DNA of 64,000 nt, taken from a virus. A model generated the notes under the pieces. The model worked only from the letters and a program-made list of their open reading frames with translations. It did no database searches and was not told the DNA's origin. The translations under genes and the position numbers were made by a program. Of this stretch, positions 11,614 to 55,599 are shown one piece after another (the first letter of the stretch is position 1; every line of letters starts with the position of its first letter). Location: the IMG/VR virus record IMGVR_UViG_3300038312_000193; one strand, given 5' to 3'.

Positions 11614-11677
11614 ATCGTGATAAAACTTTAATTTGGTGTTGATTTTACCCCTTAGAAACGCCGAAATCTAGGCGTTT
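11614..11677. repeat. 12-6-12 palindromic site plus companion 7-8-7 palindrome next to the recombinase
   Basis: ATCGTGATAAAA-CTTTAA-TTTGGTGTTGAT, 12 bp, AAACGCC-GAAATCTA-GGCGTTT. Confidence 0.75.
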
Positions 11678-11740
11678 ATATTTTTGCAAAAATATACAAT
11701 AATTTGGAAATTTATAAAATTAGAAAGAAAGGGATGATAA

Positions 11741-11884
11741 ATGCTATTTCAAAAATTAACAGAATGGATTGAACAAAAATTGTTGGAACTTATCGATCGT
11801 TATAATGAATTTACTTATGAATGGAGTACAGGATATAAAAAATGTTTAAATGATATTTTAAAGTTTATTAAAACATTAAAATAA
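11741..11884 (+). CDS. Hypothetical 47-aa protein
   Basis: AAAGGGA RBS, open frame MLFQKLTEWIEQK.. Confidence 0.5.
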   Translation: MLFQKLTEWIEQKLLELIDRYNEFTYEWSTGYKKCLNDILKFIKTLK

Positions 11885-11995
11885 ATAGGGTAGAGAACAC
11901 TCCTTCCCCCTACCCTATTGTGTAGATAATCTAAAGGAACAATTTAGACTATCCTTATTAGATTATATCATGCAAGGAGATGATTTGCAAAGGAA

Positions 11996-12448
11996 GTGTT
12001 GTTGTTGGTAAAATCTAATGATTGTGAGCAAATAAAAATATGTGAAAAAGAATTTGATATGTTAGATGAAAAAATCAAGGTCGCGAACCACAGGCTAAAT
12101 GATCTTGAAGGGAAAGTAGATAATTTAAGTTCTATAAATGTAACTTTAGCAGAATTAAAAACTATATCTAAACAACAATTAGAAAGTAATAAGGATCGTG
12201 ATGAATTATTAAAACAACATAGTGATACATTGACTCAAATGAACACTTCTTTAATTAATATGAATCATAAATTTGAAGAGTCAGAAAAAAGTGTTTCTGA
12301 TTTAAAAGGAGAGATAAAAGAAGTTAAGAATGATGTTAAAAATATAAATAAAGATAATACTATTAAAATACCAGATATTATAAAAAATTTAATTATGATG
12401 GGGTTATCTATGGGTTTTGGAGTGTGGATTAGTTCAATATTAAAGTAA
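11996..12448 (+). CDS. Lysis-module coiled-coil protein with C-terminal TM (XhlA/holin-like)
   Basis: Long coiled coil, single C-terminal hydrophobic helix, position. Confidence 0.55.
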   Translation: MLLLVKSNDCEQIKICEKEFDMLDEKIKVANHRLNDLEGKVDNLSSINVTLAELKTISKQQLESNKDRDELLKQHSDTLTQMNTSLINMNHKFEESEKSVSDLKGEIKEVKNDVKNINKDNTIKIPDIIKNLIMMGLSMGFGVWISSILK

Positions 12449-12449
12449 G

Positions 12450-12767
12450 GTGATTTATTTGGGTAAAATAAAACAAAAGGTTTCAAATTGGTGGAACGAT
12501 GGAGTGTCATTTAAAGAGACAATTGCAATGATTCTTATTTTAATTTTTGGTTATTCAGTTTTTATTGCTTGTAAAAAAATGATGATAAAAAGTTTGGATT
12601 ATTTTGATATAGAATTTTATAAAATACTTAGTGCACAAGTAATAATAATCTTGTGTTTTTATTTTGGAGGAAGTTCTGCTGAAAATATTATTAATTGTAT
12701 TTTTAATAAAAGTAAAAAAATAAATTTAAGTAAAAATGTAATTAATGATGAAAATAGTAATATATAA
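12450..12767 (+). CDS. Two-TM holin-like protein
   Basis: Two hydrophobic helices ending in FYFGGSS; basic tail. Confidence 0.55.
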   Translation: MIYLGKIKQKVSNWWNDGVSFKETIAMILILIFGYSVFIACKKMMIKSLDYFDIEFYKILSAQVIIILCFYFGGSSAENIINCIFNKSKKINLSKNVINDENSNI

Positions 12768-12899
12768 GTAATTTTATATTATAAATTATTTTTAAAGAGT
12801 ATTTAAGGAGTAATTAACTTTAGATTAGAATGTTATCTCCCAACATTCTTTACCCTTTATTTTTTATGTTTATTTTTAGGGAGAGAAGGGAGGAATAAA

Positions 12900-13823
12900 A
12901 TGGTTAGGAAAAAGAAATATACTTATGAAGAAGTGAAATATTTTATTGAAATAGAATCTAATAGTGGATGTAAATTAATTAGTGAAGAATATATAAACTC
13001 AAAAAATAAATTAGATATTAGATGTAAATGTGGAAATACATTTCCAAAATCATTTGAAAAATTTAAAATTGGTCAAAGACAATGTAATTTATGTAGTAAT
13101 AAATTAATAAATGAAAAGAAAAAATTGCCATTTATTGAGGTATTTAATTTTGTTAAAAATTGCGGATATGAATTAGTAAGTACTGAATATTATAATAATG
13201 CTACTTCAATAATTATAAAATCAAAAGAAGGGTATTTAATAAAAACTACTTTAATGAGATTGAAAGATCATAAAACTCCTAATATATTTCATAAATCAAA
13301 TCCTTATACAATACAGAATATAAAGTTATGGTGTAAATTGAATAATAAATCATTTGAATTAATTAGTAAAGAATATATTGATGCTCATAAAAAATTAAGA
13401 TGGTTATGTTTAGAAAGTAATTGTGGTAAAGAGTTTTTCGCATCTTGGGGAAAAATTTTTCAAAATCGTAATTGTCCATATTGTAATCAATCTAAAGGCG
13501 AAAAAATAATAGCAAATTATTTAATAAATAATAATATAAATTATACACCTCAAAAAGAATTTGAAAGTTTGGTAGGAATAAAAAATGGTAATCTTTCTTA
13601 TGATTTTTATTTACTAGATTATAATTTATTAATTGAATACCAAGGAGAATTTCATGATGGAAGTGCAGGAGTATATACTCGAAGAAATTTAAAACGTCAA
13701 AAAGAACATGATAGACGTAAAAAAGATTATGCGCAAAATCATAATATAAAACTATTTGAAATATGGTATTGGGATTTTGATAATATTGAAGAAATTCTAG
13801 ATGGTATTTTAATTAATAAGTAG
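12900..13823 (+). CDS. Free-standing Zn-finger PD-(D/E)XK putative homing endonuclease
   Basis: CxxC repeats; SKGE..I, YDFYL, LIEYQGEFH, IWYWDFDNIEEIL. Confidence 0.8.
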   Translation: MVRKKKYTYEEVKYFIEIESNSGCKLISEEYINSKNKLDIRCKCGNTFPKSFEKFKIGQRQCNLCSNKLINEKKKLPFIEVFNFVKNCGYELVSTEYYNNATSIIIKSKEGYLIKTTLMRLKDHKTPNIFHKSNPYTIQNIKLWCKLNNKSFELISKEYIDAHKKLRWLCLESNCGKEFFASWGKIFQNRNCPYCNQSKGEKIIANYLINNNINYTPQKEFESLVGIKNGNLSYDFYLLDYNLLIEYQGEFHDGSAGVYTRRNLKRQKEHDRRKKDYAQNHNIKLFEIWYWDFDNIEEILDGILINK

Positions 13824-13905
13824 GTGAATTATTTAGATGAAATAAAGAAATTCAATTAAAAATGTAATTGATAATGAAGATAATAATAAAGAAGGTGAAT
13901 TATTA

Positions 13906-14817
13906 GTGTATAAAGTTGATATAATTCCTGGGCATGGCGGCGGTGATCCTGGTGCTTGTGGAAGTAAAGGCATTAGAGAATGTGATGGTACTCTAGCGGT
14001 TGCTTTAAAATTAGCATATTTATTAAATATAAATGGAATAAAATCAAATTTAAGTAGAAATACAAATATTGCTTGTGGTGGGGCAAAAAATACCAAGCAA
14101 GATGTTAATAACCAAATTGCATTTAGCAATAATTCTAATGCGGATATTGCTATATCAATTCATTTTAATTCCGCTGTAAATAAAACTGCTCATGGAGTTG
14201 AAAGTTTATATTCGCAATATAATGGATTGCTAAATAATAATATAAAATTAGCAGAATTATTAGTAAATGAAGTAGTAAATGCTACAGGATTAACTAATAG
14301 GGGTAGTAAAAATGTTGGTAAATCTATTGGAGTAGTTAGAGCAATTAAGAAACCTGTATCTTTAATTGAATGTGCTTTTATATCTAATCCTGATGAAGAA
14401 ATATGGGTTTATGATGATGCACATCAATTAGTTTTAGCAAAAGCAATTTGTAAAGCTATATGTAAATATTTTGGTGTTGAATATAAAGAACATGGAGGAG
14501 ATGAAGAAGATTTGATAGAAGCAAAAGTAAAAATTGCTGATAAACAATTAAATGCTTATTTAATTAATGACAAAACATATGTTGAACTTCGTAGTCTTTG
14601 TGATTTTATTAATAGATCAATTGAGTGGGATAATAAAACTTCAACCGCGACAGTAAGTAAAGAAAATTTTCCTAAAGTAAATATTGAAGTTGAAAATACA
14701 AAAATAAATGGAATTCTTATTGAAGATAAAACATTTGGTAGTTTAAGAGAAATTGCGGAAGCACTTGGGAAAAAAGTTGAGTGGGTGAACGAAACTAAAA
14801 CTGCAATTGTAAAGTAG
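13906..14817 (+). CDS. Endolysin, N-acetylmuramoyl-L-alanine amidase (Amidase_3) with stalk-like C-terminal repeats
   Basis: PGHGGGDPGA, E, SIHFNS, LIECAFISN motifs. Confidence 0.92.
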   Translation: MYKVDIIPGHGGGDPGACGSKGIRECDGTLAVALKLAYLLNINGIKSNLSRNTNIACGGAKNTKQDVNNQIAFSNNSNADIAISIHFNSAVNKTAHGVESLYSQYNGLLNNNIKLAELLVNEVVNATGLTNRGSKNVGKSIGVVRAIKKPVSLIECAFISNPDEEIWVYDDAHQLVLAKAICKAICKYFGVEYKEHGGDEEDLIEAKVKIADKQLNAYLINDKTYVELRSLCDFINRSIEWDNKTSTATVSKENFPKVNIEVENTKINGILIEDKTFGSLREIAEALGKKVEWVNETKTAIVK

Positions 14818-14933
14818 GTGATATTATGTTGGAACGATGGAAGTTGTTTTCGGGTTAGTAATATGGTTATTAGGGATAATTATATTTTGTTTGAGTAATA
14901 GATTATAAATATAATATAAAAAGGAGGTACTAT

Positions 14934-15287
14934 ATGTATCAAGATTTAATTATAAAAATTATTAGTGACATTGTTTATGTTCTTGCGTTAGTTTTTATTA
15001 GTTATGGGATTGCTTTAATTAAGAAAAAGATTGGGACTGAAAAAATAACTAAGATTGAGCAAGAATTAAGATTAAAACAAGGTTTAGCATATGATGCTGT
15101 AAAATTTGTTGAACAGGCATATGTTGATTTACATGGGAAAGATAAATTAGAACAAGCTGTAAATTGGGTTTGTGATAGATTGCATGAAAAAGGTATTGAA
15201 ATAAATGAAGATGAGATTGAAGGATTAGTTGAGAGTGCTTTGAGGGGTATTAAAGATGCCTATGGTGAGAATTGGGTTGCGAAATAA
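14934..15287 (+). CDS. Phage holin, LL-H family
   Basis: N-terminal TM; AVKFVEQ...G..KLEQA...IEGLVESA. Confidence 0.8.
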   Translation: MYQDLIIKIISDIVYVLALVFISYGIALIKKKIGTEKITKIEQELRLKQGLAYDAVKFVEQAYVDLHGKDKLEQAVNWVCDRLHEKGIEINEDEIEGLVESALRGIKDAYGENWVAK

Positions 15288-15289
15288 GA

Positions 15290-15319
15290 AATTAGTATAA
15301 ACAAGTAATTTGTCATGAT
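15290..15319. repeat. 12-6-12 site at end of lysis module
   Basis: AATTAGTATAAA-CAAGTA-ATTTGTCATGAT. Confidence 0.5.
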
Positions 15320-15637: not shown

Positions 15638-15647
15638 AAATAATTTA

Positions 15648-15685: not shown

Positions 15686-15687
15686 CA

Positions 15688-15774
15688 TGGTGCAGGGCGA
15701 GGGACTTGAACCCTCACTCTCAAATGAGAACTACCCCCTCAAAGTAGCGTGTCTGCCTGTTCCACCAGCCCTGC
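15688..15774 (-). tRNA. tRNA-Leu(GAG)
   Basis: GCAGGGC/GCCCTGC acceptor with encoded ACCA, GGTTCAAGTCC T-arm, anticodon loop TT-GAG-GG, long variable arm. Confidence 0.93.
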
Positions 15775-15779
15775 GAGTA

Positions 15780-17504
15780 TTATGCTATCATTATAGCATA
15801 TTTATTGAATTTTAATAGCCATGAGATAACGTCATCACAAGATGGTGTTATCTCATGGCAATAATTAAAAGGTTTTTCCCATTCAATTTCTAACCATAAT
15901 TTTTCAGGATTTTCTTTATCTCTATTAACAATAATTTTATTTATAAGAAGTGACACATCTATATTAGTTAATTCTCCTGTTTCAATTATATTTTCTAAAA
16001 TTTCTATGGTTTTTAATATCCCTTTTTTTGATTTATTATTAATTTCTTGAAGATTATCTATTTCATTTAATTGTTCTTCAAGTCTTAATTGAGTGGTTTT
16101 TGTGTCTTTAACTAAATCTTTAAAAATATCTTCATCAATTAAACCTTTAGCAAGTTGTTGAGAATAACTTTTAAGTTCATCTTTACATTCCGCTAATTGG
16201 ATATTAATTTTATTTTTTAAAGAATCATAATTATGTTTTTTATCAAGGTTTTCTTTAATTTTTTCATCAACCATTTTTAAAGTTTCTTTAGCAGTTTCTT
16301 TTAATTTATCAACTTGATCTAATATAGTTTTGTCAATATCTGTTTCCAAAATTTGATGTGTTTCACATTCGTTTTTACCATATCTAAAATAGGTTGAACA
16401 AATATAACATATAGGATTATCAGGATTATGACCAATATTCCTTTTAATAAATCCTTTTCCACAATTCCCACATTTCAAAATACCTGCATATTTATAAATC
16501 TTTCCATTCCCTGCTCTCACACTATTACTATTCCTTTTATTTAAAATAGTTTGTGCTAAATTAAAAGTATCTTTATCTATAATTGGTGGGAAAAAATTTT
16601 CATGAATACAATATTCAGATGGATCAGTATTTCTTCTTCCACCTTTTATCATAGTTCTTTGTGTAGTTCCGCATACTAATGTGCCTATATAACATTTGTT
16701 GGTGATTATTCTTTTTATCCCAATTTCACTCCATAAATGTTCATATTGAACATCAGTTTTAGCATTAATTCTATTAAATTTTTGTTTCTTATATAAAGAT
16801 GGAGTAATAACATTTTTTTCATTTAAATGATTTGCTATCTTTCTAAAACCATATCCATTGATATATAAATCAAATATTAGTTTAATTATCCATTCTACTT
16901 CTTCATCAATTATCCACTTATATTTGTCGTTTTCATTAGGATTTTTTATATATCCGAAAGATGGCACAATTACTAAACCGTCCTTTCTTTGTTTGGTTTT
17001 TATAGCACTTCTAATTTTTTTGCTTATATCCTTTATATAAAGTTCATTATACCATGTCTTAATTCCTATAATAGATTCATTTTGATCGTTTTTAGTATCT
17101 ACTGAATCATTGATTGCTATTAATCTTTTTTCATGAGATATAATCCATTCCAAAAATAATAAAGTTAAAGCATTATGTCTTCCAATTCTTGATAAGTCTT
17201 TTGCTATAATACCATATGCTTCGCTGTTTTCTAGTTTATCTTTAATAAGATTAAATCCAGGTCTATCAAACTTATAACCAGTAAAATTATCATCGATAAA
17301 TATACCTTTTAATTCTACTTGATTTATAACTGCCCAATCTTGAATTAAATCAATTTGAGTATTAATAGAATCTTTTTTAACATTGTCTTCATCTCTTGAA
17401 AGTCTAACATAACCATAAAAGACGCCAAGATATTTATTATTGGGTGTAGAAGGTTTAATATTACATTCAATATAATTTGAATTGATTTGCTCTTTTGTTG
17501 CCAT
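15780..17504 (-). CDS. Large serine recombinase (phage integrase)
   Basis: YVRLS catalytic motif, DRPGF, DLSRIGR, recombinase domain, Zn ribbon CGNC..YIC..C, coiled coil; AGAGGAG RBS favours ATG 17504. Confidence 0.95.
   Translation of the reverse strand: MATKEQINSNYIECNIKPSTPNNKYLGVFYGYVRLSRDEDNVKKDSINTQIDLIQDWAVINQVELKGIFIDDNFTGYKFDRPGFNLIKDKLENSEAYGIIAKDLSRIGRHNALTLLFLEWIISHEKRLIAINDSVDTKNDQNESIIGIKTWYNELYIKDISKKIRSAIKTKQRKDGLVIVPSFGYIKNPNENDKYKWIIDEEVEWIIKLIFDLYINGYGFRKIANHLNEKNVITPSLYKKQKFNRINAKTDVQYEHLWSEIGIKRIITNKCYIGTLVCGTTQRTMIKGGRRNTDPSEYCIHENFFPPIIDKDTFNLAQTILNKRNSNSVRAGNGKIYKYAGILKCGNCGKGFIKRNIGHNPDNPICYICSTYFRYGKNECETHQILETDIDKTILDQVDKLKETAKETLKMVDEKIKENLDKKHNYDSLKNKINIQLAECKDELKSYSQQLAKGLIDEDIFKDLVKDTKTTQLRLEEQLNEIDNLQEINNKSKKGILKTIEILENIIETGELTNIDVSLLINKIIVNRDKENPEKLWLEIEWEKPFNYCHEITPSCDDVISWLLKFNKYAIMIA
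15818..15859. repeat. 42-bp inverted repeat, candidate attP inside the integrase 3' end
   Basis: GCCATGAGATAAC-GTCATCACAAGATGGT-GTTATCTCATGGC. Confidence 0.6.
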
Positions 17505-17528
17505 ACATTCAACTCCTCTAATAGATAA

Positions 17529-17561
17529 ATGAGATAACACATAATTTATGTTATCTCATGG
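17529..17561. repeat. Second copy of the integrase inverted repeat upstream of its RBS
   Basis: ATGAGATAAC-ACATAATTTAT-GTTATCTCAT. Confidence 0.65.
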
Positions 17562-17568
17562 TATGCTT

Positions 17569-19333: not shown

Positions 19334-19335
19334 AT

Positions 19336-22146: not shown

Positions 22147-22167
22147 AACTTTCTCCTTTCAAAAAAA

Positions 22168-22197
22168 ATCAACACCAAATGTCTCTTTGGAACACAG
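22168..22197. repeat. 12-6-12 site abutting the TnpB right end
   Basis: ATCAACACCAAA-TGTCTC-TTTGGAACACAG. Confidence 0.75.
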
Positions 22198-22320
22198 TTG
22201 AAAAACTTTTCCTATTAAACCCAATAGGCTACCAGTCATTAACTAGGTTGTGTCCCGCAACATCTACTACTTCAACTACTTAAACTTATGCTATCCGTAG
22301 ATACTTTAAATTATTATATT
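22177..22320 (-). ncRNA. Putative TnpB omegaRNA (scaffold ending ..TTTTTCAAC, then guide)
   Basis: Non-coding 3' of tnpB with CCTATTGGGTTTAATAGG hairpin and IS200/605-type TCAA(C) end; 5' boundary uncertain. Confidence 0.6.
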
Positions 22321-23485
22321 TAGTAACTTTATATTGTGAGTTGTCGTTAAGAATATTAATTGCTCCATTAACATCTCTATGCATTATATAACCACAATTA
22401 CATTGATAATTTCTACCTTTTGGTGAATTTAAATTTCCACAACAAGGACACCTCTTGGAAGTCCAATATTCTTTAACTTTGATTAATTTAATATTACTTC
22501 TAATTAATTTATTTTCTAATTGTAACATTATCAATCCATAACACCATTGACTTAATTTTTGTCGAGTTTTTCTACTACCCCTCCCTTCTATTTTAGTATT
22601 TCTAGTACAATCATCTAAATCTCCGTAATAAACAATAGAAATATTATTTTGTAAACAATAATCTAAATAAAGCTTAGTGGTTTTATGTACTGCATCTAAG
22701 ATTTTATTATCAGTATCATATTTTAAATTTTGCATTGCTTTACTATATTTTTTATACTGTTTACTTCCTTTAATGCATTTGCTTTGTCTACTTCTTAATT
22801 TAGCTAACTCTTTATTTCTAAGTCTTTTTATACTTCTAATCTTTCTACCAGTAATTATAATTACATTCCCATTATTATCAATTGAAGTTATACTATGTAT
22901 TTCACCTAAATCTATAGCTGATTCATTATTGGATTGAATTAAATGTTGTTTATTTTCTTCTTTATATTTAATAGCTAGTTTTAAACCATTACGATAAACC
23001 AATTCAATCTCTACAATATTATTAGGAATGTTTTTTAGATGGCATTTAATAGGTTTTTGTCTTCTTTGTTCCTTTTGTTTATTTAATATCATTGGTTTTG
23101 CTAGAGTTAAATATTTTTCATCTTTATATATTTTAATATTTTGATATGTCCAACCAGTATTAAAAAATTTCTTTTCTTTATATGGTAGTTTAACTTTATT
23201 ACTATTTTCGTGTTTTGCCATTATTGATTTCCACATTGCATCCCTAGCAGTAACATATTTTATAATTACAAAATTAATACTATTTGCTAATAATATTGGA
23301 ACAGATTTTTTCATCATAAACTGCAATTCAGATTGAGTAAGAGATTTATTAAATTTCTTACGATTTTTTTGATCTGCTTTAACACAAGCATTCCATACTT
23401 TTGCTGAATATTTGTTACATTTCATAAGATAATCATAATCTTTTTTATTACAATTTACTGGCACTATTAATGTTTTATAAAGTAT
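22286..23485 (-). CDS. tnpB: Solo TnpB RNA-guided endonuclease (IS200/IS605 family, IS1341-like, no tnpA)
   Basis: AIDLG (RuvC-I), EYWTSKRCPCCG/CNCG Zn finger, HRDVNGAINI (RuvC-III); probable ATA start at 23485 after GGAGG. Confidence 0.92.
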   Translation of the reverse strand: MLYKTLIVPVNCNKKDYDYLMKCNKYSAKVWNACVKADQKNRKKFNKSLTQSELQFMMKKSVPILLANSINFVIIKYVTARDAMWKSIMAKHENSNKVKLPYKEKKFFNTGWTYQNIKIYKDEKYLTLAKPMILNKQKEQRRQKPIKCHLKNIPNNIVEIELVYRNGLKLAIKYKEENKQHLIQSNNESAIDLGEIHSITSIDNNGNVIIITGRKIRSIKRLRNKELAKLRSRQSKCIKGSKQYKKYSKAMQNLKYDTDNKILDAVHKTTKLYLDYCLQNNISIVYYGDLDDCTRNTKIEGRGSRKTRQKLSQWCYGLIMLQLENKLIRSNIKLIKVKEYWTSKRCPCCGNLNSPKGRNYQCNCGYIMHRDVNGAINILNDNSQYKVTKYNNLKYLRIA

Positions 23486-23517
23486 AATTAACCTCCTTCC
23501 TTATTGTTTTAAATAAT

Positions 23518-23581
23518 ATCAACACCAAACAAACCTTCTGTCATGATTTCATGTTTCACAAACGCCTATTTCTAGGCATTC
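23518..23581. repeat. 12-6-12 site plus companion upstream of tnpB
   Basis: ATCAACACCAAA-CAAACC-TTCTGTCATGAT, 12 bp, AAACGCC-TATTTCTA-GGCATTC. Confidence 0.75.
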
Positions 23582-29708: not shown

Positions 29709-29832
29709 TATTGAACCCCCTCCACTCTCTAAATATCATCATAAAATTCCAATTTGGTATTGTTTTTAGGGTTTAAGAATCCCATAATATTGGGATTCTT
29801 AAAATTGTAATTTTAGAATATTTAAACGTAAA

Positions 29833-30898: not shown

Positions 30899-33180
30899 AA
30901 TATATTACTCCTTTTTAATAAATCTAATAAATGCGTATTTCTATTTAAATTTGCTCTCTTTTTTAATGCTCGATTAATTACTTCTGGTTCACCTAAATGA
31001 TAACACCGTTCCTCTGCTCTGGTCTGACCTACATAAATCAAATTTGCATTTAGCATATATGTATGTGCTTTAGGGGTAATTAAAATAATGTTTTTAGCCG
31101 AACCTCCTTGTGCCTTATATAAGGATATGCTATATGCTAATTTTAGATTCAAACCTGTTTCTCTATCATAAACAATTCTTTCATTATCAAATTGCACCAC
31201 CATAAATTGCCGATCTATTAAAATTACTTTCCCAATATCACCATTGCTTATAAATGTTTGAAACGTATCATCTTCAAAAGGATTAAAACTTTCAGGATTA
31301 TAAACTATAGCTTTATAATTATTTTTTGTTTGAATTACAATATCATCTAAATAATAAGTCGTATCTCCACATTTAAATTTTAAATCACTATCATAATTTT
31401 TATTTGCTATCTTTTGAATCATTTCATTTATTTTTTCAGTACCATAATCACCAATATTATATGAAGATAAGATTAAAATATCTTCTGGAGATACCCCACT
31501 ATTCATTAATTTAAGATATAGATTTTTAACAGTTGAAATGATTTTTTCTTGTGACATAGGCATATAAATATATGCTTTATCTTCACCAAATATATTAATA
31601 TTAGTTTTATCTTTTATCCAGGACTCTCCGTATCTTGTTTTTGTTGATATAGTTGATATTCCACCTATTCCGAATCTAAATACTTTGGTTAATGAAGTAA
31701 TTGGTATTACACCTGAATTAATTAAATCATATAGTACATTTCCTGCTCCAACTGAAGGAATTTGGAAATCATCACCGATAAATAATAATTTGGTTCTTGA
31801 AAAATCTATTGCTTCAAGAAGTCTTTTTAATAAAAATATATCAGTCATTGAAGTTTCATCTACTATTACTACATCAAAAGGTAATTTATTATTTTCATTG
31901 TAACCCCATTGTGGATCGACAGATGGATTAAATGCTAAACCTCTATGTATTGTATAAGTATCTTCTTTAGTATATCCTGCAAGAACCTTACTTGCTCTAC
32001 CAGTAGGACAAAGTAAATGAAAGGTTTTGCCTAATCTTTTAATCAAAGATAAAATTGCTTGAGTGGTGAATGATTTGCCTACACCTCCTCCACCATTTAA
32101 AATACTTATATTATTTTCATAAAACATTTTAATTGCATTAAATTGTTCATCAGTTAATTCATCATCACCAATTTTTTTAAACTCATTAATACTTATTTCG
32201 TCCCATTTATTTTTACTTTTTAATCCTTCAATAAGTCTTTCTGCTACATATAATTCGGTATTATAAGTTTCCAAAATTGATATACTTTTACTTTCTTTAT
32301 CAATATGAAAATCTTCTGTATTTTTAATAGCTTCTATAAATTTATCACTACATTCAGGTGTTAGTTTATCAAATAACTTTCTAAATTCTACAATTGATAT
32401 TCTAGTATGACCATCATTTTCATTTTGCTCTAATAAATATTCAATTGCAGACACGGCACGTTGAATAGATGTTTTTATATCAAAATCAAAATATACTAAA
32501 GGTATTTTACCTTGTTTCTTTTGTAATTTTGATTCTTTATCTAATTCAAGAATAATACTATCTGCGGTTTTAAAAGAAATTTTAGATAGAGAACATAAGC
32601 AATGATAAGGTTCATTTTGTATTTCTTGTTTAATCCTTAATGTAGAAGGATATCTATCGTATAACTTTCTAACGGTATTCATATCAAGTAATCCTTGGAA
32701 CATCTCAATTAATTCAGCAAATACAAAATTTTCTTCTATTTTTTGCCTGATAATATTAAATCGGAATTGACCAATATTATATAATTTCTTTAAATCAATA
32801 TCTTCAAGTCTATTATTTATAACCCTATCCACAATATCAGGATAACTTTCCATAATGGTTTTAACTTGATCTGGTGTTAATAATTCAGATAAAAACATAC
32901 GAGTGGTATTTTCATTTGTAGGTCTATCCCGTTGGATATGGATAACTTTATATTGATACCCATATCCATTCTTAGATTTTTGTTCTTCAGCTTTAATATG
33001 ATACTCGATTCCTAATCCCAGATTATGTATATTGCCAAGAATAGTATAATTACCATATTTATTTTGCTTTATATTTGGGAATTTTTCTTTATCAATATCT
33101 ACTGCATATATCTTATATTTATCTGTATCATAAGAGCATATAAATGGTATGCAAGTAAATTCTTTAATTATTTTATCCAT
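30895..33180 (-). CDS. recD2: RecD2-like SF1B helicase
   Basis: GGGGVGKS, VDETSM, GDDFQIPSVGAG, AYSISLYKAQG, YVGQTRA. Confidence 0.9.
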   Translation of the reverse strand: MDKIIKEFTCIPFICSYDTDKYKIYAVDIDKEKFPNIKQNKYGNYTILGNIHNLGLGIEYHIKAEEQKSKNGYGYQYKVIHIQRDRPTNENTTRMFLSELLTPDQVKTIMESYPDIVDRVINNRLEDIDLKKLYNIGQFRFNIIRQKIEENFVFAELIEMFQGLLDMNTVRKLYDRYPSTLRIKQEIQNEPYHCLCSLSKISFKTADSIILELDKESKLQKKQGKIPLVYFDFDIKTSIQRAVSAIEYLLEQNENDGHTRISIVEFRKLFDKLTPECSDKFIEAIKNTEDFHIDKESKSISILETYNTELYVAERLIEGLKSKNKWDEISINEFKKIGDDELTDEQFNAIKMFYENNISILNGGGGVGKSFTTQAILSLIKRLGKTFHLLCPTGRASKVLAGYTKEDTYTIHRGLAFNPSVDPQWGYNENNKLPFDVVIVDETSMTDIFLLKRLLEAIDFSRTKLLFIGDDFQIPSVGAGNVLYDLINSGVIPITSLTKVFRFGIGGISTISTKTRYGESWIKDKTNINIFGEDKAYIYMPMSQEKIISTVKNLYLKLMNSGVSPEDILILSSYNIGDYGTEKINEMIQKIANKNYDSDLKFKCGDTTYYLDDIVIQTKNNYKAIVYNPESFNPFEDDTFQTFISNGDIGKVILIDRQFMVVQFDNERIVYDRETGLNLKLAYSISLYKAQGGSAKNIILITPKAHTYMLNANLIYVGQTRAEERCYHLGEPEVINRALKKRANLNRNTHLLDLLKRSNIL

Positions 33181-34465
33181 TAATTACCTTTCTCTTTAAT
33201 AATAATTTTTCTTTTAATATATCTTCAATATTATCATAATCCCAATACCATATTTCTAAAAGATTTATATTATTATTCTCAGCATATTCTCTTTTTCTAC
33301 GATCATGTTCTAATTGTTTTTTTAAATTCTTCTTTATGTAATAGTTTCCATTGCCATCATGAAATTCCCCTTGATATTCTATAAGTAAATTATAATTAGG
33401 TAAATAGAAATCATAGGATAATAAACCTCCACCTAAACCTATAAGACTTTGAAATTCTTTTTGAAAATCATATTTTATATTATTTTTTATTAACCATTCT
33501 TCAATTTGTTTTTCGCCCTTAGATTGATTACATTGTGGGCAACGAAAATTATAAATATTTGAATTACTTATATTTCTTTTATAATCTTTATGTATTCCTT
33601 CAAAACATTTCCAATAAACATCTTTATTACTCATGGGTGCATATTCATAAGGAGAAGTTTTGTTTTTATCAGACCATATATTTAATACTTCTGGATACAA
33701 TGTTCCTAAACTGTCTAATGGATGTATTTTTCTATTAGCACAATATGAACATCTATTATTTTGAATAGTAAAATTAGATGGAAAAGTTTTATAACTTCCA
33801 TGATAGTTTTTAATTTGACATTTAATATATATTATTGTTTTATCAGAACCATAACTAATTTCCCAAGGATCAACTGTATTCTTTTCATAATCCCAATACT
33901 TCACAAGGAAATCTTCATCTAAATTATCTATTCCCCATTGTGCAAAGGAGTTACATGCTTTACAATCCATACCATGTAATTTATTTGTAAAATTATTTAA
34001 ATTTTTTAGTTCACTTTTATGTAATCCTCTTGGGCATTTAAAATAATACTTTTTCTTATTAACACTATAAGCAATTTCATTTGGTTTGCAATCATTTAAT
34101 TCATAATCCCACCTGTCAAGAATATCTTTATAATTATTTTCAATGCACCATTGTTCAAAAGATTTAGATTTTTTTAATTTAGTTTTTCTACATTTTTCTT
34201 TTCCAAATAAATTCGCAGAACATTTTTTACAATAATATCTACCATCATTTTTAACATGTTTTAAATAATTTTTCCAAGGTATATTTTTTAATTCTTTTCC
34301 ACAACCATCACATTCTATATCTATTTGAATATGGCTCCCTTTACTTATATCTTTAATATCAACTCTAAATTCATCACCTATATTAGTAAAAGAATAACCT
34401 TTAGCAATATAATAATTTTTATTCCTTGCTCTCCAATTCATTATTACGTATTTTGTTTTTATCAA
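33173..34465 (-). CDS. Zn-ribbon repeat PD-(D/E)XK putative homing endonuclease
   Basis: WDYE.N...P repeats, SKGE, YDFYLP, IEYQGEFH, IWYWD. Confidence 0.8.
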   Translation of the reverse strand: MIKTKYVIMNWRARNKNYYIAKGYSFTNIGDEFRVDIKDISKGSHIQIDIECDGCGKELKNIPWKNYLKHVKNDGRYYCKKCSANLFGKEKCRKTKLKKSKSFEQWCIENNYKDILDRWDYELNDCKPNEIAYSVNKKKYYFKCPRGLHKSELKNLNNFTNKLHGMDCKACNSFAQWGIDNLDEDFLVKYWDYEKNTVDPWEISYGSDKTIIYIKCQIKNYHGSYKTFPSNFTIQNNRCSYCANRKIHPLDSLGTLYPEVLNIWSDKNKTSPYEYAPMSNKDVYWKCFEGIHKDYKRNISNSNIYNFRCPQCNQSKGEKQIEEWLIKNNIKYDFQKEFQSLIGLGGGLLSYDFYLPNYNLLIEYQGEFHDGNGNYYIKKNLKKQLEHDRRKREYAENNNINLLEIWYWDYDNIEDILKEKLLLKRKVING

Positions 34466-48177: not shown

Positions 48178-48203
48178 AACTTCCTCCTTTCGTTTGTATA
48201 TTT

Positions 48204-48232
48204 ATTTTATACTTTTAATAAAAATTTGTCAA
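48204..48232 (-). promoter_or_regulatory. sigmaA promoter of ligA
   Basis: TTGACA-17 bp-TAAAAT. Confidence 0.7.
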
Positions 48233-48878: not shown

Positions 48879-49112
48879 TTATTTTATAACATTCATATTT
48901 TTATCAATATCATATTTTTTACTTTCTTCATAAGTAATTTCAAATTCAACCACTTCGGCATTTAAATATTTCTCACAATCTTCAAACATGTTTAAATGAC
49001 CATTAACATTACCAAAAGTTGACCATGCATGACCGTTTTTACTCCAACCACCATACATACCTTTATTAGCATATAAACCTGTTTCTTTATCTCTTATTTT
49101 ATAAACCTTCAA
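48879..49112 (-). CDS. Hypothetical protein
   Basis: GGAGGTG RBS; bounded by sites. Confidence 0.6.
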   Translation of the reverse strand: MKVYKIRDKETGLYANKGMYGGWSKNGHAWSTFGNVNGHLNMFEDCEKYLNAEVVEFEITYEESKKYDIDKNMNVIK

Positions 49113-49198
49113 TAAATTTCACCTCCTATAAATACCAATATAACGACTTTTCTGTTTTAACCAAATCAGACTTTTATAATGATTTTGTTCCTATTTGT

Positions 49199-49882
49199 TT
49201 ATATTATATTTTTGATTCTAGGTGTTATAATTTCATCTATGTATTTTGATTTAGTTTCGGTTGCCAGCCAATTACGATTATTTTTAATACAACTTTCAAT
49301 TTCACTACCTGAACCAGCAAAAGGAATATAAACTAAATCATTTTCATTTGAAGATTGAGTTATTAGGATATCAGCAATTTCTACACTTTTTTCAGATGGA
49401 TGTTTCCTTTTTTTACCTTTAGGGAATTTTACATCTATTAAATTAGATATGGAATTATTATTTACTTGTTTTGCCTTACCAATAGAATTTCTAAATAATA
49501 ATACAAATTCTATTTGTTTCATATACCAACCGAATATTACTTTATTACCTTTATTCAGAACTATTACATTCATCAACTTTAAACCACATTTATCTGCATT
49601 ATACAAAATATCTAATAAATTTTTATCATTACTATAAACATATAAATGAGCAGACGGTTTTAATATTCTTTTAAATTCACTCATATATTGATCAGCTTGA
49701 AGATAATCAAATAATTTTCTTTCTTCTTTATTTCTATAAAATATCCCACTTCTCATTTTCCCTGCTCCTCCACCAGCTTCTATTTTATATGGTGGGTCAG
49801 CGATTATTAAATCAATATATTCATTAGGCAATTGTTTCATAAATTCATTGCAATCTTCATTGTATATTTTATTAATTTCTAT
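49199..49882 (-). CDS. N6A/N4C DNA methyltransferase (beta class), probable ATA start
   Basis: IYNEDC, DPPY, HPSEK, PFAGSGS. Confidence 0.9.
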   Translation of the reverse strand: MEINKIYNEDCNEFMKQLPNEYIDLIIADPPYKIEAGGGAGKMRSGIFYRNKEERKLFDYLQADQYMSEFKRILKPSAHLYVYSNDKNLLDILYNADKCGLKLMNVIVLNKGNKVIFGWYMKQIEFVLLFRNSIGKAKQVNNNSISNLIDVKFPKGKKRKHPSEKSVEIADILITQSSNENDLVYIPFAGSGSEIESCIKNNRNWLATETKSKYIDEIITPRIKNII

Positions 49883-49974
49883 GTTTTTGACTCTCCTTTC
49901 TATAACTTTTAATCAAACAAAAATTTGGTGTTGTTTTTGTAATTTATAAATGCCATTATTTCGGACTTTGTATT

Positions 49975-50739
49975 TTATACTATTAATCTGTTTTTTGCAA
50001 TTTCACAATATTTTTCTTCCAATTCGATGCCAATACATTTTCTTTTTAAATTCCTTGATGCTAATAATGTTGTACCAGAACCGCAAGTGAAATCTAAAAT
50101 AAGTTCGTTTTCTTTTGTGTATGTATTAATTAAATATTCTATAAGAGGCACTGGTTTTTGTGTTGGATGTAAACCACTTTCAGAATTAAATTCTAAAATA
50201 TTATTCGGATAATTTGTATATTTTTGAGTATAATCATTTTGTCTGCTTGGACGTTCTTCAATTGTAGTCCCTTTTCTTGATTTGCCTTTATTGCTTTTTT
50301 GTTTATTAATTTCTATTAACCCTTGAGGATAATATTTCATCATGTTTTTACTGCCATTTGCTATGTTTCCAAAACTAAAACACATTACATCTTCATATTT
50401 TTTCATTGGACTATTTTTAGCATTTAGAAAATTACCTACTTTTGATTTAATCCATTTATAATCATATTTATAAAGTTTTTCATTGCTCAATCTTAAATGA
50501 CTACTAAATGGTTCTGTGCCAAATAAACAAATACATCCATCGTCTACTATTAAATTTTCAAGTCTATCCCATATTTCTTTATAATTAATTACACTATCCC
50601 ATTTACATGCTGTAGTCCCATAAGGTGGATCAGTGATTATTGCATCAAATTTTATACCCTTCTCAATAATCTTATCCATCACTTCTAAACAATCACCTTG
50701 AAATAGTCTTATGTATTCATCTTTATAGTATAATTGCAT
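49975..50739 (-). CDS. N6A/N4C DNA methyltransferase (beta class)
   Basis: GDCL, DPPYG, HPTQKP, DFTCGSGTT. Confidence 0.93.
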   Translation of the reverse strand: MQLYYKDEYIRLFQGDCLEVMDKIIEKGIKFDAIITDPPYGTTACKWDSVINYKEIWDRLENLIVDDGCICLFGTEPFSSHLRLSNEKLYKYDYKWIKSKVGNFLNAKNSPMKKYEDVMCFSFGNIANGSKNMMKYYPQGLIEINKQKSNKGKSRKGTTIEERPSRQNDYTQKYTNYPNNILEFNSESGLHPTQKPVPLIEYLINTYTKENELILDFTCGSGTTLLASRNLKRKCIGIELEEKYCEIAKNRLIV

Positions 50740-50767
50740 CTATAATTAATTCAACCCTCCTTTTATA

Positions 50768-51346
50768 TTATATTTTTACATCACTTTCAACTTCATTACC
50801 CCATACGTCCCAACCTACTCTTTTATTTCTAGCAAACAATTCAATGTAAGGTGCATAACTAACTTTCTCTATCATTTCATACATCTCTTTTGGTTTTTCA
50901 GAATGTTCCCCTCTAGGAGCAACAAATACCGTTTTACCTTGTTGCCTTTTACTATTTAAAGTCTTATATGGCAAAACACCTTTTACACCAAACAAACATA
51001 CTTCATCAAGTCCACGGAAATATTGTCCTAATCCTGCATTTTCAAATTTAAAAGTTTTACCTTCTGAATCAAGACATTCTCCTTTTACCCATGTGATTTT
51101 TGTTTTATATGTAAATCCCCATGCTTTCATAACTTGTAAACCATCTTTAAGAAAATTATTTGTAACCCATAAGTATAAGTGACAATTATCATCTGCTAAA
51201 TTATGTATTGGTAAATTTATAATATCCTTTGTTTTCATTAATGGATAATGTCTATCTGCTCCACGTTTAATCTTTCCTCCACCTGATTCCATCCAAGGAG
51301 GATCGGCATATATTGTTTTATATTTATTAATCTTTTTTACCTCCAT
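50768..51346 (-). CDS. MT-A70 family adenine methyltransferase
   Basis: ADPPW, LYLWVT, HSEKP, IELFAR...GWDVWGNE. Confidence 0.92.
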   Translation of the reverse strand: MEVKKINKYKTIYADPPWMESGGGKIKRGADRHYPLMKTKDIINLPIHNLADDNCHLYLWVTNNFLKDGLQVMKAWGFTYKTKITWVKGECLDSEGKTFKFENAGLGQYFRGLDEVCLFGVKGVLPYKTLNSKRQQGKTVFVAPRGEHSEKPKEMYEMIEKVSYAPYIELFARNKRVGWDVWGNEVESDVKI

Positions 51347-51438
51347 TTTTATATTATTGTTTTATTATGACTTGTGACAAAACCGAAGTTTTGTGTTGAT
51401 TTTTGGATTTATAAAGCCCAATATTACGGGATTCTTGT

Positions 51439-52182
51439 TTAAGCAATTTTGTGATTTTTGACTCTTTCTAAAGATAAATTATAATATTCTTCATCTGTTT
51501 CAAATCCTATGTAATTTCTTTTGGTATTTAAACAAGCTATCGCTGTTGTACCAGAACCCATACAATTATCTAAAACTAATTCATTTTCATTTGTGTATGT
51601 ATTAATTAAGTATTCAAATAATTCCACTGGTTTTTGAGTAGGATGAACTTTTTCTTTCTGATTTGCGTTACCGATTTCAATAATGCTTGTTGGATAGTAT
51701 TCATCATATATTTCTTTTTCTTTAGGTTGATTTATAGTGCCATAACAATCACTTAAAGAATAAAGTTTTCCACCTTTACTTCTCTGTTTTCCTTTTCTCA
51801 TAATTGGATTATATGTAGGCATTTTTTTATAAAAACATAATATTAATTCATGTCTTCTTAAAGGTTGTCTTTTGGCATTTAAAAAACCTGTTGATAATTT
51901 TTTATCCCATATTAAATCATATTTAAATAATTTATTATTACTATTAATTAATTTAGTTGCAAATGGTTGTGTAGCAGTAAAACACATCATCCCATTATCT
52001 TTTATAATTCTTTCATACTGCTCCCATAATGGTTCAAATGGAATTATCTCATCCCATTTATTTCTTGCCGTAACCCCATACGGCAAATCACATAAGATCA
52101 TATCAATACTTTTATCTGGTATTAAACACATACCATTTTCTTTAATACAATCTTCATTATAAATAGTATTCAATTCAATCAA
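51439..52182 (-). CDS. N6A/N4C DNA methyltransferase (beta class)
   Basis: CDLPYG, HPTQKP, DNCMGSGTT. Confidence 0.92.
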   Translation of the reverse strand: MIELNTIYNEDCIKENGMCLIPDKSIDMILCDLPYGVTARNKWDEIIPFEPLWEQYERIIKDNGMMCFTATQPFATKLINSNNKLFKYDLIWDKKLSTGFLNAKRQPLRRHELILCFYKKMPTYNPIMRKGKQRSKGGKLYSLSDCYGTINQPKEKEIYDEYYPTSIIEIGNANQKEKVHPTQKPVELFEYLINTYTNENELVLDNCMGSGTTAIACLNTKRNYIGFETDEEYYNLSLERVKNHKIA

Positions 52183-52491
52183 TTTATGTATTATTATCCT
52201 CCTTATTTTTATTTTATGCTTTTAATAGTTTTTTTTCAGAAAATCATGCCTCACAAACGCCCAAATTTCGGACTTCATTTCTGCACCAAATAGAGAATTT
52301 ATCAACACTCCTCTTTAAATGCCTCGTAACACCCTTTTGTATATTCAATTATTTCCATGTCTTCACAATCATTACAATTAAGACTACAAGAGTATTGCCC
52401 ATCTGTGATTTCTTCTACGTCAGCACACCAACTGCCGTATGTATTACACCATTTAGCCATATTTACCTCCAATCATTATGAAACATAGTTT

Positions 52492-52908
52492 TTATGCTGA
52501 TATTTCTTTTCTTACTCTCATAAGAATTTTGCCCAACATATTCTTACCTCTACCCCTGCACACTCCCCAATATATATCATTCCATGTGTTTCCTTCTATT
52601 AACTCCTCATTACCAGTATCAACAAGTCTTTGTCTTAAATCTTGGTTACGAGTAAACTTATCCTTAACACATTGATACATCACTTCGTCTTTAATATCTT
52701 CCCAATCATTTCTAAGTAAAACATTTCTACCTTTCTTCTTTGCTGTTGAAGGGTCAAGTTGGCAAAATTGTTTTCTACGTTCTATATCTTTTACTTTAGC
52801 AGATTGAAAAGCAGCTTCATTATTTTGGTAAAGTAAATCTTCAAATATTACTGGTGCAGAATAAAAATTACTAAGAAAATAATATTTGCCTTTAAATTCA
52901 TTAATCAT
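52492..52908 (-). CDS. NADAR (YbiA-like) family hydrolase
   Basis: FLSNFY, EAAFQSAK, KKKGR, KF..N..L...L..TG, D.YWG, G.N.LGKILM.VR. Confidence 0.92.
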   Translation of the reverse strand: MINEFKGKYYFLSNFYSAPVIFEDLLYQNNEAAFQSAKVKDIERRKQFCQLDPSTAKKKGRNVLLRNDWEDIKDEVMYQCVKDKFTRNQDLRQRLVDTGNEELIEGNTWNDIYWGVCRGRGKNMLGKILMRVRKEISA

Positions 52909-53033
52909 ATTTATAACCTTCCTTTTAAATCGTGATCAACCTCAAATTTTATTCAAATATTTATCTATATATTGTGCCATCAATTGTTTTATGTCAGAAT
53001 ATATAGTATACTAATCTTTTTATTTTGAGTAAT

Positions 53034-54761
53034 TTATATTATTTTTTGTAGTTTCTCCATATATCCCCTATTAACTATTATTATATTATTATCAAAATTT
53101 AGATGATAAAGTTTAAATCCATTGTAATCATAAATATTGGTTATAACTGCTTTAACATTATTATAATTAATTTCTTTTATGTAATCTCCAATAATGTGTT
53201 GTACTTTAATCTTATTTATAATGAATATATCTCCAATTTCATATTCTTCTCTATCCCATAGTAACTTTCTATCTTCAGGAGAAGCAAAATCTAAATATCC
53301 ATTAAAAGTTCTTCCGTATATTTTATTAATTTTTATTTTACGCCATTCACAATATAAATTATCATCAAAATTCATAAGATCACAATAAGTCTCTTTTAGA
53401 GAATCATTTTTATTACCAATAGCTAAAATATCTCTATTATTATAATTAACCGTATAATATTTTCCATCATCCATTTCTAAAAGATATCCCGCTTTAATAT
53501 CATCTATATTGTACATACCTTTCTCCTTTCTTAACCAATTCGATTTTTGGTTTTAATTTTATAGATTACCAATATTTTATTTCCCCATTTTTTCTTACCT
53601 ACTATTTTTATATTATTTTTTAGTTATAAGTTCTTTTTTTAATCTTTCTACTTCTTCTTCAACAATCATAATAATACATGGTTCACTATCTTCATCATTG
53701 TTAAACTTAACTAATTCCAATTCTTTACCGTTATATTCATTACCATAGATTTTATACATAACCAAATAATCTCCATCATCACAAAGAATTTTATGACTAT
53801 TAGAAAATCTCTTTTTACATTCTTCGTATGTCATATTAATATATCTCCTTTATTTAATTCTCCTGTACAATATTATTATAATCAGTTTCAACGACACATT
53901 TTTCATCAACTCTAATTTGTACTAAATTACATTCACTATCCGCACCTACCACCTTACCTTTAACCCCTTTTAGGATACCATTTAAAATTGTTGCTTCTTG
54001 ATTGACTTTTACAGCCATTATTAATCCTCCTTTACATAATTGTATTTTTTATTTTCTTCTCTTAACGGACACCAATCTGGACTAGATTTTTTATAAACAT
54101 TCATTGGAATAGTTAATGCATCTAAAAAATCATCATCAAAAGTATTACCGTAAGTATCATAATCTGGGACAACATATTCACATACATATAAATATCCGTT
54201 TAAACCGTAATCCTCACAGTTTTCACAGGTCTTGCATTTTGGTGTTTTCATAATATATCATCCTTATTTATTTCTTTATGCTCTTTTTTAAACATATAAT
54301 ATTCATGCTTATTTCCGTCAAATAAAACTCTTTTACAATTTTTACAAGTAAGTTTATAATAGCCTGATTCATAAAAATATTCATCAGGCTCGACACGAAA
54401 TTCTTCTTTCAAATTTTTACAACTACATTTTTTATTATTCTTCATCTTCTATTTCTCCATCTTCCCCTCTAACATTCTTTTTTACAGCTTCCCATAATAA
54501 ATCACATAATTCTATTTGATTATTAGTTAATCGTGCCTCACCCGTTTCAAATAATAATGCTATAGAACATCCATAATCTTCATCTAAAATGATCTGTATA
54601 GGAATATCTTGTGAATAATTATCTCTTAAATATTCTAACATTTCTCCAATAGTAAACAGTTTTCTTTTGGTAATATTAGAATTAGTATCCCATTGCTTTA
54701 AAAATACTTTTTCTTTATAATTCAATTCATCCCATTGTTCTTTTGTAATTTGTTGTTTCAT
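53034..54761 (-). other. Hypothetical CDS cluster (53034-53516, 53613-53834, 54021-54251, 54248-54445, 54435-54761)
   Basis: ORF track, RBSs. Confidence 0.6.
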
Positions 54762-54806
54762 ATTAATTCCTTTTTAATTCATTTTTCTAATAACTTTCAT
54801 ATGTAA

Positions 54807-55165
54807 TATAGAAAGTAATAGTTACCCGAAATACCTACTACTTTCTATAACCGTACCAACCAATACGGATTAGTCTTTTGACAGCAGGGACACGATATTG
54901 TGTTTACTGTTTTTGCTCGACCACAACTATCACTTTCGGGGAGTAATGGTTGAGTTTGATGTTTGATCCACCCTCAGTCTCCGTCAAGGAAACCTACTTC
55001 CCCCTCTTAGTTATAAGAGTCCCCAGATTTTTAGTTTTGTCTGCTTCCCACCCTTTATTCAGACCATGATTGAAATAACAGAGTTTTTTGAATCTCAATC
55101 ATCCCGTATATAATTCCACTACTTTTAATAGAATTTTTTAGCCACTCTGTCATTAGCTAAGTAGT
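54807..55165 (-). ncRNA. Candidate ~360-nt structured non-coding RNA
   Basis: ORF-free, GC-elevated, many hairpins, G-U pairs favour the minus strand, complementary loops CCCGAAA/TTTCGGG. Confidence 0.65.
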
Positions 55166-55271
55166 TTCATTATATACACTCACCAAATTAACTTATAATA
55201 AAATAAAATAAGTATATCAAACTTTATTATGTATTTTTATTATAATTTTTTATATTATAGTTTTAATATAT

Positions 55272-55418
55272 TTAACTAATCTTATTAATTCCATAAAATA
55301 TTACATTAATAATTGCAAAACCAATATTAAGTACCGTTCCACAAATATTTTCTTTTGCCGCAAAATAAGCTGCTAATAGTATACATGCGACTATTAATAT
55401 TAAACTTATAGTAGACAT
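55272..55418 (-). CDS. 48-aa hydrophobic two-helix peptide (not in ORF track)
   Basis: MSTISLILIVACILLAAYFAAKENICGTVLNIGFAIINVIFYG..; GGAGGGGG RBS. Confidence 0.65.
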   Translation of the reverse strand: MSTISLILIVACILLAAYFAAKENICGTVLNIGFAIINVIFYGINKIS

Positions 55419-55471
55419 ATTTTCCCCCCTCCCTGCTTTTAAATATTATTAAGATCAAGCTCTCCTCTATT

Positions 55472-55500
55472 AGTATAATATCATATGTATTATTTGTCAA
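55472..55500 (-). promoter_or_regulatory. sigmaA promoter
   Basis: TTGACA-17 bp-TATACT. Confidence 0.8.
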
Positions 55501-55599
55501 TATTTATTTTTTGCTTTTAATGAAAGTTTTTTATAAAATTCATAGTTCAAGAATCCCAATATTTAGGCATCCATTTCATGATAGAACTAGAATTTTATG

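Follow-up and report, generated by a model that had tools for sequence, protein, structure and literature searches.

SPbeta-like phages are a model for arbitrium signalling, and their lysogeny depends on the repressor MrpR/SroF and on a second repressor, SroE. MrpR of SPbeta is an inactive integrase-fold protein that acts as a repressor by binding a repeated element, SPBRE, at ten promoters (PMC10516654). In phi3T, SroF binds a 26-bp A-tract-rich box at multiple distant sites, as a monomer that nearly encircles the DNA; SroE may stabilise the SroF complex (bioRxiv 10.1101/2025.11.27.690993). When read in the SPbeta genome, SPBRE is TATACATATTWTTTGTATTTG, i.e. AAATACA-N7-TGTATTT (7-7-7), which always has one orientation and ends at the ribosome-binding site (RBS). 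Here we describe a repeated 22-bp palindrome of 7-8-7 design, RAAYSCC-N8-GGSRTTY (the 22-mer), in the viral DNA of IMG/VR record IMGVR_UViG_3300038312_000193. The whole stretch analysed, 64,000 nucleotides in length (the window), belongs to an SPbeta-like phage and has the gene order of SPbeta. The 22-mer stands at fixed distances from a second repeated element, the core, a 30-bp junction site of 12-6-12 design (ATCAACACCAAA-N6-TTTGGTGTTGAT) that was scored over its 20 specified positions. We regard the 22-mer as a candidate protein-binding box in helical register with the core and, tentatively, as most likely the counterpart of SPBRE and of the phi3T box Phi3TRE, because its size, AT-rich centre, outer AAAT/ATTT, copy number and gene-tied polarity match those of SPBRE.

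All eight 22-mers that a preliminary description had placed in the window were confirmed by reading the sequence, and each has a core beside it. The sites are as follows (no strand is assigned to them).

11614..11643, core, 47 bp past the Xer-like recombinase gene; score 17/20; conserved in relatives L131 and L132
11656..11677, 22-bp palindrome AAACGCC-N8-GGCGTTT, 12 bp from the core; perfect stem and T-rich run; -9.4 kcal/mol
23518..23547, core, whose minus-strand right arm TTTGGTGTTGAT abuts the TnpB insert; 18/20
23560..23581, 22-bp palindrome, core 12 bp away
29735..29764, core; 17/20
29777..29798, 22-bp palindrome GAATCCC-N8-GGGATTC, arms perfect over 12 bp; core 12 bp away
49130..49151, degenerate 22-bp palindrome, abutting the RBS of a minus-strand open reading frame (ORF), 48879-49112
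49154..49183, core, 2 bp from the palindrome, after the methylase gene 49199-49840; 15/20
49906..49935, core; homology with L125 ends just beyond its 6-bp spacer
49948..49969, 22-bp palindrome, 12 bp from the core, 5 nt past the stop codon of the methylase gene 49975-50739
51371..51400, core, spacer CTTCGG (sense strand)
51413..51434, 22-bp palindrome, 12 bp from the core, 4 nt past the stop codon of the methylase gene 51439-52182
52255..52276, 22-bp palindrome, about 15 bp upstream of a promoter-like site (weak -35 / TAAAAT) at a methylase gene
52279..52308, weak core (good left arm, poor right arm), 2 bp from the palindrome; 12/20
55551..55572, 22-bp palindrome, 2 bp from the core in the window and 12 bp in relatives through a 10-bp indel
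55575..55604, weak core that overlaps the end of ORF 55600-55983; palindrome 2 bp away; 13/20

Three of the eight fit RAAYSCC-N8-GGSRTTY exactly, four have one or two mismatches and the degenerate copy at 49130 has three. At two mismatches or fewer the pattern occurs 11 times in the window, compared with 2.9 expected, and none of 100 shuffles attained 11; three of these 11 matches are chance ones inside genes. Further copies were collected from related contigs (L125, L131, L132, L148, L175, L188 and L191-L195), which form a single tightly related phage group. After pooling and removal of duplicates, 36 non-redundant 22-mers were obtained, 27 of them with a recognisable core; the other nine are mostly chance matches in coding sequence. 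Over 29 copies aligned in the sense direction, there is no variation at A3, C7, G17, T20 and T21, and at least 90% of copies keep C6 and G16. The two halves are not equivalent on the sense strand: GGGATTY is matched better by the 3' half in 16 copies and by the 5' half in 3, with no difference in 10. This polarity tracks the direction of the genes and not the side occupied by the core, and it fits a putative asymmetric binder whose orientation follows that of the genes, as is the case for every copy of SPBRE. GANTC methylation sites were dropped as a general feature of the arms because they are confined to the GAATC/GATTC variants. The composite pattern had 0 matches in viral contigs and 54 in metagenome contigs, of which 52 are unrelated conserved coding sequence and two are true relatives (L148 and L175).

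The distance between the two elements is fixed. On the plus strand the core precedes the palindrome by exactly 12 bp at five sites (core/palindrome starts 11614/11656, 23518/23560, 29735/29777, 49906/49948 and 51371/51413), and the palindrome precedes the core by exactly 2 bp at three (49130/49154, 52255/52279 and 55551/55575). A core at an offset of 2 or 12 bp accompanies 8 of 8 window palindromes, compared with 1.7% of all window positions. In 27 non-redundant composites of palindrome and core, from the window and its relatives, the spacing was 12 bp in 18, 13 bp in two, 2 bp in six and 7 bp in one, i.e. 12/13 or 2 bp in 26 of 27. Nominal phasing probabilities are too small here, because the copies are related by descent and their independence is overstated. 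It can be seen that the distribution is sharply peaked and not flat, which bears out the earlier claims of a fixed 12-bp or 2-bp distance and of a spacing beyond chance; the association with a subclass of sites also held, the element being real and its spacing fixed at a subset of junctions. One helical turn separates the 12-bp class from the 2-bp class. The same difference is seen between phages at the site that follows the 127-aa gene (55551), with 12 bp in three relatives and 2 bp in the window through one clean 10-bp indel. Either order, palindrome then core or core then palindrome, occurs on the sense strand, and the linkers are strongly diverged in sequence yet constant in length. The 12-bp linker often begins TTT, like a degenerate direct repeat of the core right arm (11644-11655 and 29765-29776), and the linker at L132:3072-3083 is a perfect TTTGGTGTTGAT; besides the palindrome, a composite may thus comprise three arm-like units.

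A palindrome may act as a hairpin in RNA or as a site in duplex DNA. In the 29 sense-aligned copies, pairing is found in 82.3% of arm cells; exchanging the 3' arms at random among copies gives 81.5%, and 187 of 500 such shuffles equal or exceed the real value. Position 4 of the arm is unpaired in 13 copies and position 5 in 16. Folds weaker than -4 kcal/mol were obtained for 12 of the 29, compared with -13 to -14 kcal/mol for true terminators of the window, and copies in the early region have no U tract. The hairpin reading of the 22-mer was rejected on this lack of covariation together with the weak fold energies. The palindromic look stems from two conserved half-sites and not from selection for pairing, which therefore points to a protein reading duplex DNA. 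A caveat is that the mean fold energy is -5.1 kcal/mol on the sense strand vs -3.5 on the antisense, with 15 vs 7 G-U pairs.

As to gene context, most copies lie 4-30 nt past the upstream stop codon, and many begin only 0-5 nt past one. A copy stands behind each of six different DNA methylase genes, which encode N6_N4 family proteins of 247, 254, 243, 223 and 213 residues and a D12-class Dam methylase. The right arm of the cores ends 0-5 nt ahead of the RBS of the next gene. A hybrid methylase gene was also seen in a relative (L191:13410-14141); it arose by recombination of two paralogous methylase genes (window 50068-51645) at an 81% repeat (50092-50169 / 51568-51645), and the intervening MT-A70 gene was deleted.

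Two genes of the window bear on which protein may bind at these sites.

10587..11567, + strand, Xer-like tyrosine recombinase, catalytic residues R, K, HxxR, H and Y all aligned
63803..64000, - strand, last 66 codons of the gene of an MrpR/SroF-type integrase-fold repressor, the remainder lying beyond the window edge

Relatives have, just beyond the window's right edge, a DndB-like gene and then the gene of an MrpR_N_CB protein (L191:72-1103 and L192:710-3055). This protein matches Pfam MrpR_N_CB (8e-14) as well as PDB 8a0a and 9rd5, with the solved MrpR structure among its matches; its identity to YopR is 22% across 292 residues (E 7e-12). The DndB-like and MrpR-like pair is the counterpart of SPbeta yopQ-yopR (sroE-sroF), found here in a phage of a 27% G+C host. 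Because the phage encodes an MrpR/SroF-type repressor whose known boxes are similar, a regulatory reading is at least as good as the analogy with cer/psi that was drawn in the preliminary description. The known boxes, SPBRE and Phi3TRE, are 21-26 bp long with an AT-rich centre and are repeated about ten times, in distant intergenic positions and in one orientation, and the 22-mer is alike in these respects. Written as AAATGCC-N8-GGGATTT, it has the outer AAAT/ATTT and the AT-rich centre in common with SPBRE, and there are eight 22-mers in the 64-kb window compared with ten SPBRE boxes in SPbeta.

The presence of the repressor gene and the layout, phasing, polarity and unconstrained pairing of the 22-mer were observed directly; the identity of the binding protein and the effect of binding we infer as follows. 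The 22-mer would be a double-stranded DNA site, not a hairpin, bound by a phage protein, of which an MrpR/SroF-type integrase-fold repressor is the best guess. Palindrome and core, lying 12 or 2 bp apart, form a two-site module of about 64 bp at selected accessory-gene junctions. Their nearest half-sites are about two helical turns or one turn apart, so that proteins bound there would lie on one face of the helix and be able to make contact. The core would hold a second factor, which might be the DndB-like SroE homologue, further copies of the repressor or the Xer-like recombinase. The pair would then silence or tune transcription across certain cassette junctions in the lysogen, notably after methylase genes.

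Several observations, however, weigh against this assignment. The 22-mer differs from SPBRE in the inner triplets, and its centre is 1 bp longer. SPBRE precedes the RBS, between promoter and RBS of repressed early genes, whereas most 22-mers follow a stop codon and only two copies (49130 and L188:4286) stand directly ahead of an RBS. There is no copy at the promoter of the DndB/MrpR-like operon in L192, and SPBRE has no core-like partner beside it in SPbeta. In the late region the copies at 11656 and L132:3084 combine a perfect stem with a T-rich tail, in the manner of ordinary terminators; they may well terminate transcription, that of the recombinase gene in the case of 11656. Part of the constancy in spacing could be due to the descent of all composites from one 64-bp repeat unit. 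Finally, the assignment of 22-mer and core could be the reverse, because the cores, with right arms ending 0-5 nt before an RBS, resemble SPBRE more by position.

A possible, if somewhat unlikely, alternative is a boundary module like the promoter-early stem-loops (PeSLs) of T4-type phages (PMC2839356, PMC4122927). The 22-mer would be a past or present short intrinsic-terminator hairpin that closes a gene cassette at its 3' end, and the core would carry the start signals of the next cassette; the fixed spacing would come from common descent of a repeated terminator-plus-leader unit, and such units would offer short homologies for modular exchange in co-infection. The likeness is that of a small composite repeat between accessory ORFs in a plastic region, with gene-swap joints in the repeats; here also the mosaic joints cluster at the cores. 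In addition, the many copies immediately behind stop codons, the perfect stems and T runs of the late copies, the stronger sense folds with their excess of G-U pairs, and the T4-type precedent itself speak for this explanation, as does the finding that homologues of the recombinase gene in other phages are followed by ordinary hairpin terminators, one of which has an 8-nt AT loop. A PeSL, however, is a proven terminator plus a strong sigma-70 promoter, in a phage family different from this SPbeta-like phage, whereas the 22-mer is free of any pairing constraint and the core of any in-register promoter signal. Covariation is absent, two central mismatches occur in about half of the copies, the early copies are without a U tract, and the real terminators of the window are far stronger. 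At the cores no sigma-A signal was seen in register (mean matches 2.7/6 and 3.3/6, with the same values on the antisense strand), and the core as a sigma-A promoter with 17-bp spacing was dropped, there being no in-register signal in either orientation. A hairpin reading of the cores was given up as well, with 37 of 150 Watson-Crick pairs at free core positions, fewer than the 48 in shuffles. Moreover, descent alone does not account for an exact 10-bp spacing variant that recurs at five sites with different flanks.

In cer/psi (XerCD) and in Tn4430/Tn5401 (TnpI), inverted arms of 11-14 bp enclose a spacer of 6-8 bp, and an extra site is found at a fixed distance on one side. The accessory sequences of cer/psi and the direct-repeat motifs beside the Tn4430/Tn5401 resolution core are thus cases comparable to a recombination accessory site, in which the Xer-like recombinase would exchange strands in the 6-bp spacer of the core and the 22-mer would bind an accessory factor or further recombinase and set the direction or activity of a subclass of sites. 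We consider this unlikely, in spite of the resemblance in arm-spacer core, phased extra site and Xer-like recombinase gene beside one copy. Upon alignment to XerA and XerD every catalytic residue of the recombinase is in place, and the enzyme is intact and predicted to be catalytically competent. It is retained in relatives that have a tyrosine integrase in place of the serine recombinase, and the composite that follows its gene at 47 bp in the window follows it in L131 and L132 too; in L131 the arms of this palindrome have changed symmetrically, toward the form of the 29777 copy. The 12-6-12 geometry of the core is classic, and the 12-bp linker is like a degenerate third arm, a perfect one in the composite of L132:3084.

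The distribution of the cores and of the mosaic joints also argues in part for recombination. There are tens of cores, whose spacers differ between sites in one genome and are identical at orthologous junctions of different genomes; at junctions sharing the spacers TTTGAG, TCCAGC, TGCGTC, CTTCGG or TTTTTG, the arms and the flanking genes differ among phages. When the window was compared with five relatives, 9 of 34 distinct homology breaks lay within 25 bp of a strict core centre, i.e. within 4% of the region, and several more fell at weaker cores. The relatives show gene gains, losses and swaps with joints at cores. Because spacers differ between sites, however, canonical tyrosine recombination could join only allelic sites, and short homology explains mosaic joints at or near the spacers equally well. 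Neither an excision nor an inversion nor a circle junction came to light, and the 22-mer has a polarity that tracks the genes and not the core side. Unlike cer/psi, there are many cores with different spacers, and the 7-8-7 motif is not a known ArgR, PepA or ArcA site. A 15-mer of the core gave only chance single matches in viral contigs, and a search of viral and genome contigs for recombinase-related loci yielded nothing useful. Homologues of the recombinase (about 37-52% identity) occupy the corresponding position, with tail genes on one side and lysis genes on the other, in a Sutcliffiella prophage and in two phages, Clostridium phage phiCp-D and Terrisporobacter phage TPELB_ph1. The scan for cores covered sampled stretches around the Sutcliffiella and metagenome homologues (L202-L205, about 9 kb each), which hold 0 or 1 core; phiCp-D and TPELB_ph1 were compared in gene position. 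In several unrelated Firmicute phages (L202, L203, L206 and L207) the location of the recombinase family is conserved, between the tail-fibre genes and those for holin and endolysin, apart from the integration module.

The accessory-site proposal of the preliminary description stands in part. The one-turn spacing classes, the 10-bp indel and the pairing-independent conservation fit a protein site within a complex, but recombination at the palindrome was not found. The further suggestion of a second recombinase core with an 8-bp overlap found no support, as the joints map in or beside the cores and not in the 8-bp centre of the palindrome; the sole exception-like hint is a conversion-like 33-nt patch with 12 differences between the window and L188, which starts inside the 8-bp centre at 52255. 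The attC sites of integrons are 57-141 bp long, fold as single strands with extrahelical bases and have R''/L''-L'/R' sites and RYYYAAC / GTTRRRY core sites. The 22-mer recalls attC in being an imperfect palindrome that ends single-gene cassettes on their 3' side, in a phage with a tyrosine recombinase, but it is 22 bp in size, has no pairing constraint and follows another consensus, and an attI or Pc arrangement is absent; the identity was rejected on size, folding and consensus alike.

About as unlikely as the recombination accessory site is an operator for some other phage or host regulator outside the MrpR/SroF family, which would act on promoters immediately downstream, for example as a class I-type activator site near -60. 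The half-sites are conserved without pairing constraint. At 52255 a promoter whose -35 hexamer is weak and whose -10 hexamer reads TAAAAT has its inferred start about 62 bp downstream of the palindrome centre; judged by eye, the layout is alike in the homologous stretch at 55551. All promoter positions are inferred ones, however, a promoter scan gave no enrichment, and among the ORFs searched there is no candidate helix-turn-helix protein.

Quite unlikely, in our judgement, is a cassette exchange of the phage's own, in which the recombinase would swap single-gene cassettes between co-infecting relatives at 12-6-12 sites, some 35-40 in number and addressed by their 6-bp spacers. The 22-mer would license or orient a subclass of these sites, possibly via the integrase-fold repressor, and recombination would thereby be coupled to lysogenic repression.

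Ends of an IS200/IS605-type or palindrome-associated mobile element, in which a hairpin would keep a set distance from a cleavage site TTGAT, were rejected as highly improbable: the TTGAT of one core arm is indeed followed, without a gap, by a solo tnpB that L120 and L132 lack, but the palindrome has no hairpin constraint, no tnpA is found among the ORFs scanned, TnpB adjoins a single site, and composites occur at orthologous junctions in relatives, not as insertions. Within 22147-23547 the 12-mer TTTGGTGTTGAT is found on either side of the tnpB insertion (392 aa; 22286-23464), and the stretch past the tnpB stop codon resembles a guide-RNA scaffold that would read into the next core. In L120 and L132, which are without tnpB, the palindrome, a short linker and the core stand directly ahead of a dUTPase gene.

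The window has 27% G+C and is phage DNA over its whole length. Tail genes (a YomG_N/Prophage_tail protein, 2092-4797, with Dit-like and fibre-like proteins) lie on the plus strand, as do genes for an amidase and a holin. The early block begins with the gene of a large serine recombinase (15780-17540, minus strand), runs on the minus strand to 64000 and encodes NrdD, a RecD-like helicase, the DNA polymerase III alpha subunit, DnaB, a Sak4-like ATPase and an NAD ligase, in addition to four DNA methylases (49199-52182), HNH-AP2 endonucleases and the solo TnpB. The parallels with SPbeta in gene order are the YomG-type tail protein, the serine recombinase, a yorF-to-yorL-like replication block and the DndB-like gene followed by the MrpR-like gene. 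Relatives, both near-identical and mosaic, are found in metagenomes from fermentation; two of these, ENA ERZ724037 NODE_40 and Logan SRR32329120_17, lie on contigs 135 and 139 kb in length. The host is a low-GC anaerobe (27% GC).

Some further features of this DNA were recorded. A tRNA-Leu(GAG) gene (15688-15774) adjoins the serine recombinase gene, in the gap between lysis and early genes where attP is expected. An ORF for a DUF4379 zinc-ribbon protein (307 aa, 12900-13823) is present or absent among otherwise 99% identical phages (12786-13840 vs L120, L121 and L132); it is flanked by direct repeats of 66-77 bp and has a paralogue on the opposite strand at 33173-34465. Upstream of the Xer-like recombinase, a GIY-YIG / I-HmuI-like endonuclease gene (9766-10503) forms two ORFs in the window and in L123, and is unbroken (245 aa) in L120-L122 (L120:1299-2036). 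Downstream of a strong TTGACA-17-TATACT promoter at 55500 there is an ORF-free gap of 565 nt (54762-55326), richer in G+C and structured-looking, for which Rfam at a permissive threshold gave nothing meaningful; Rfam gave zero matches to the whole window at gathering thresholds. A family of early promoter-like repeats, TTGACA-N17-TAAAAT with ATTAAAAG within the spacer, occurs at 48198-48232, 55472-55529, 60048-60087, 62590-62628 and other places, and the ATTAAAAG word is also found ahead of several RBSs. In L192, repeats of TGTATATA type stand on either side of the DndB/MrpR-like operon promoter, TTGACA-18-TATAAT. A TACATATGA-type motif at the repressor-operon promoter and at the promoter at 55500 was dropped from consideration, being only marginally above chance, with 35 matches in the window vs 23 expected and one of 100 shuffles reaching 35; a single exact copy is present in the window.

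A box in helical register with a second repeated site would give a direct handle on whether two proteins cooperate on DNA. The natural spacing variants differ by exactly 10 bp, and there are two sites and two or three candidate proteins. Since the cores coincide with the joints of a methylase-rich mosaic accessory region, the arrangement also bears on the trade of anti-restriction genes in large temperate phages.

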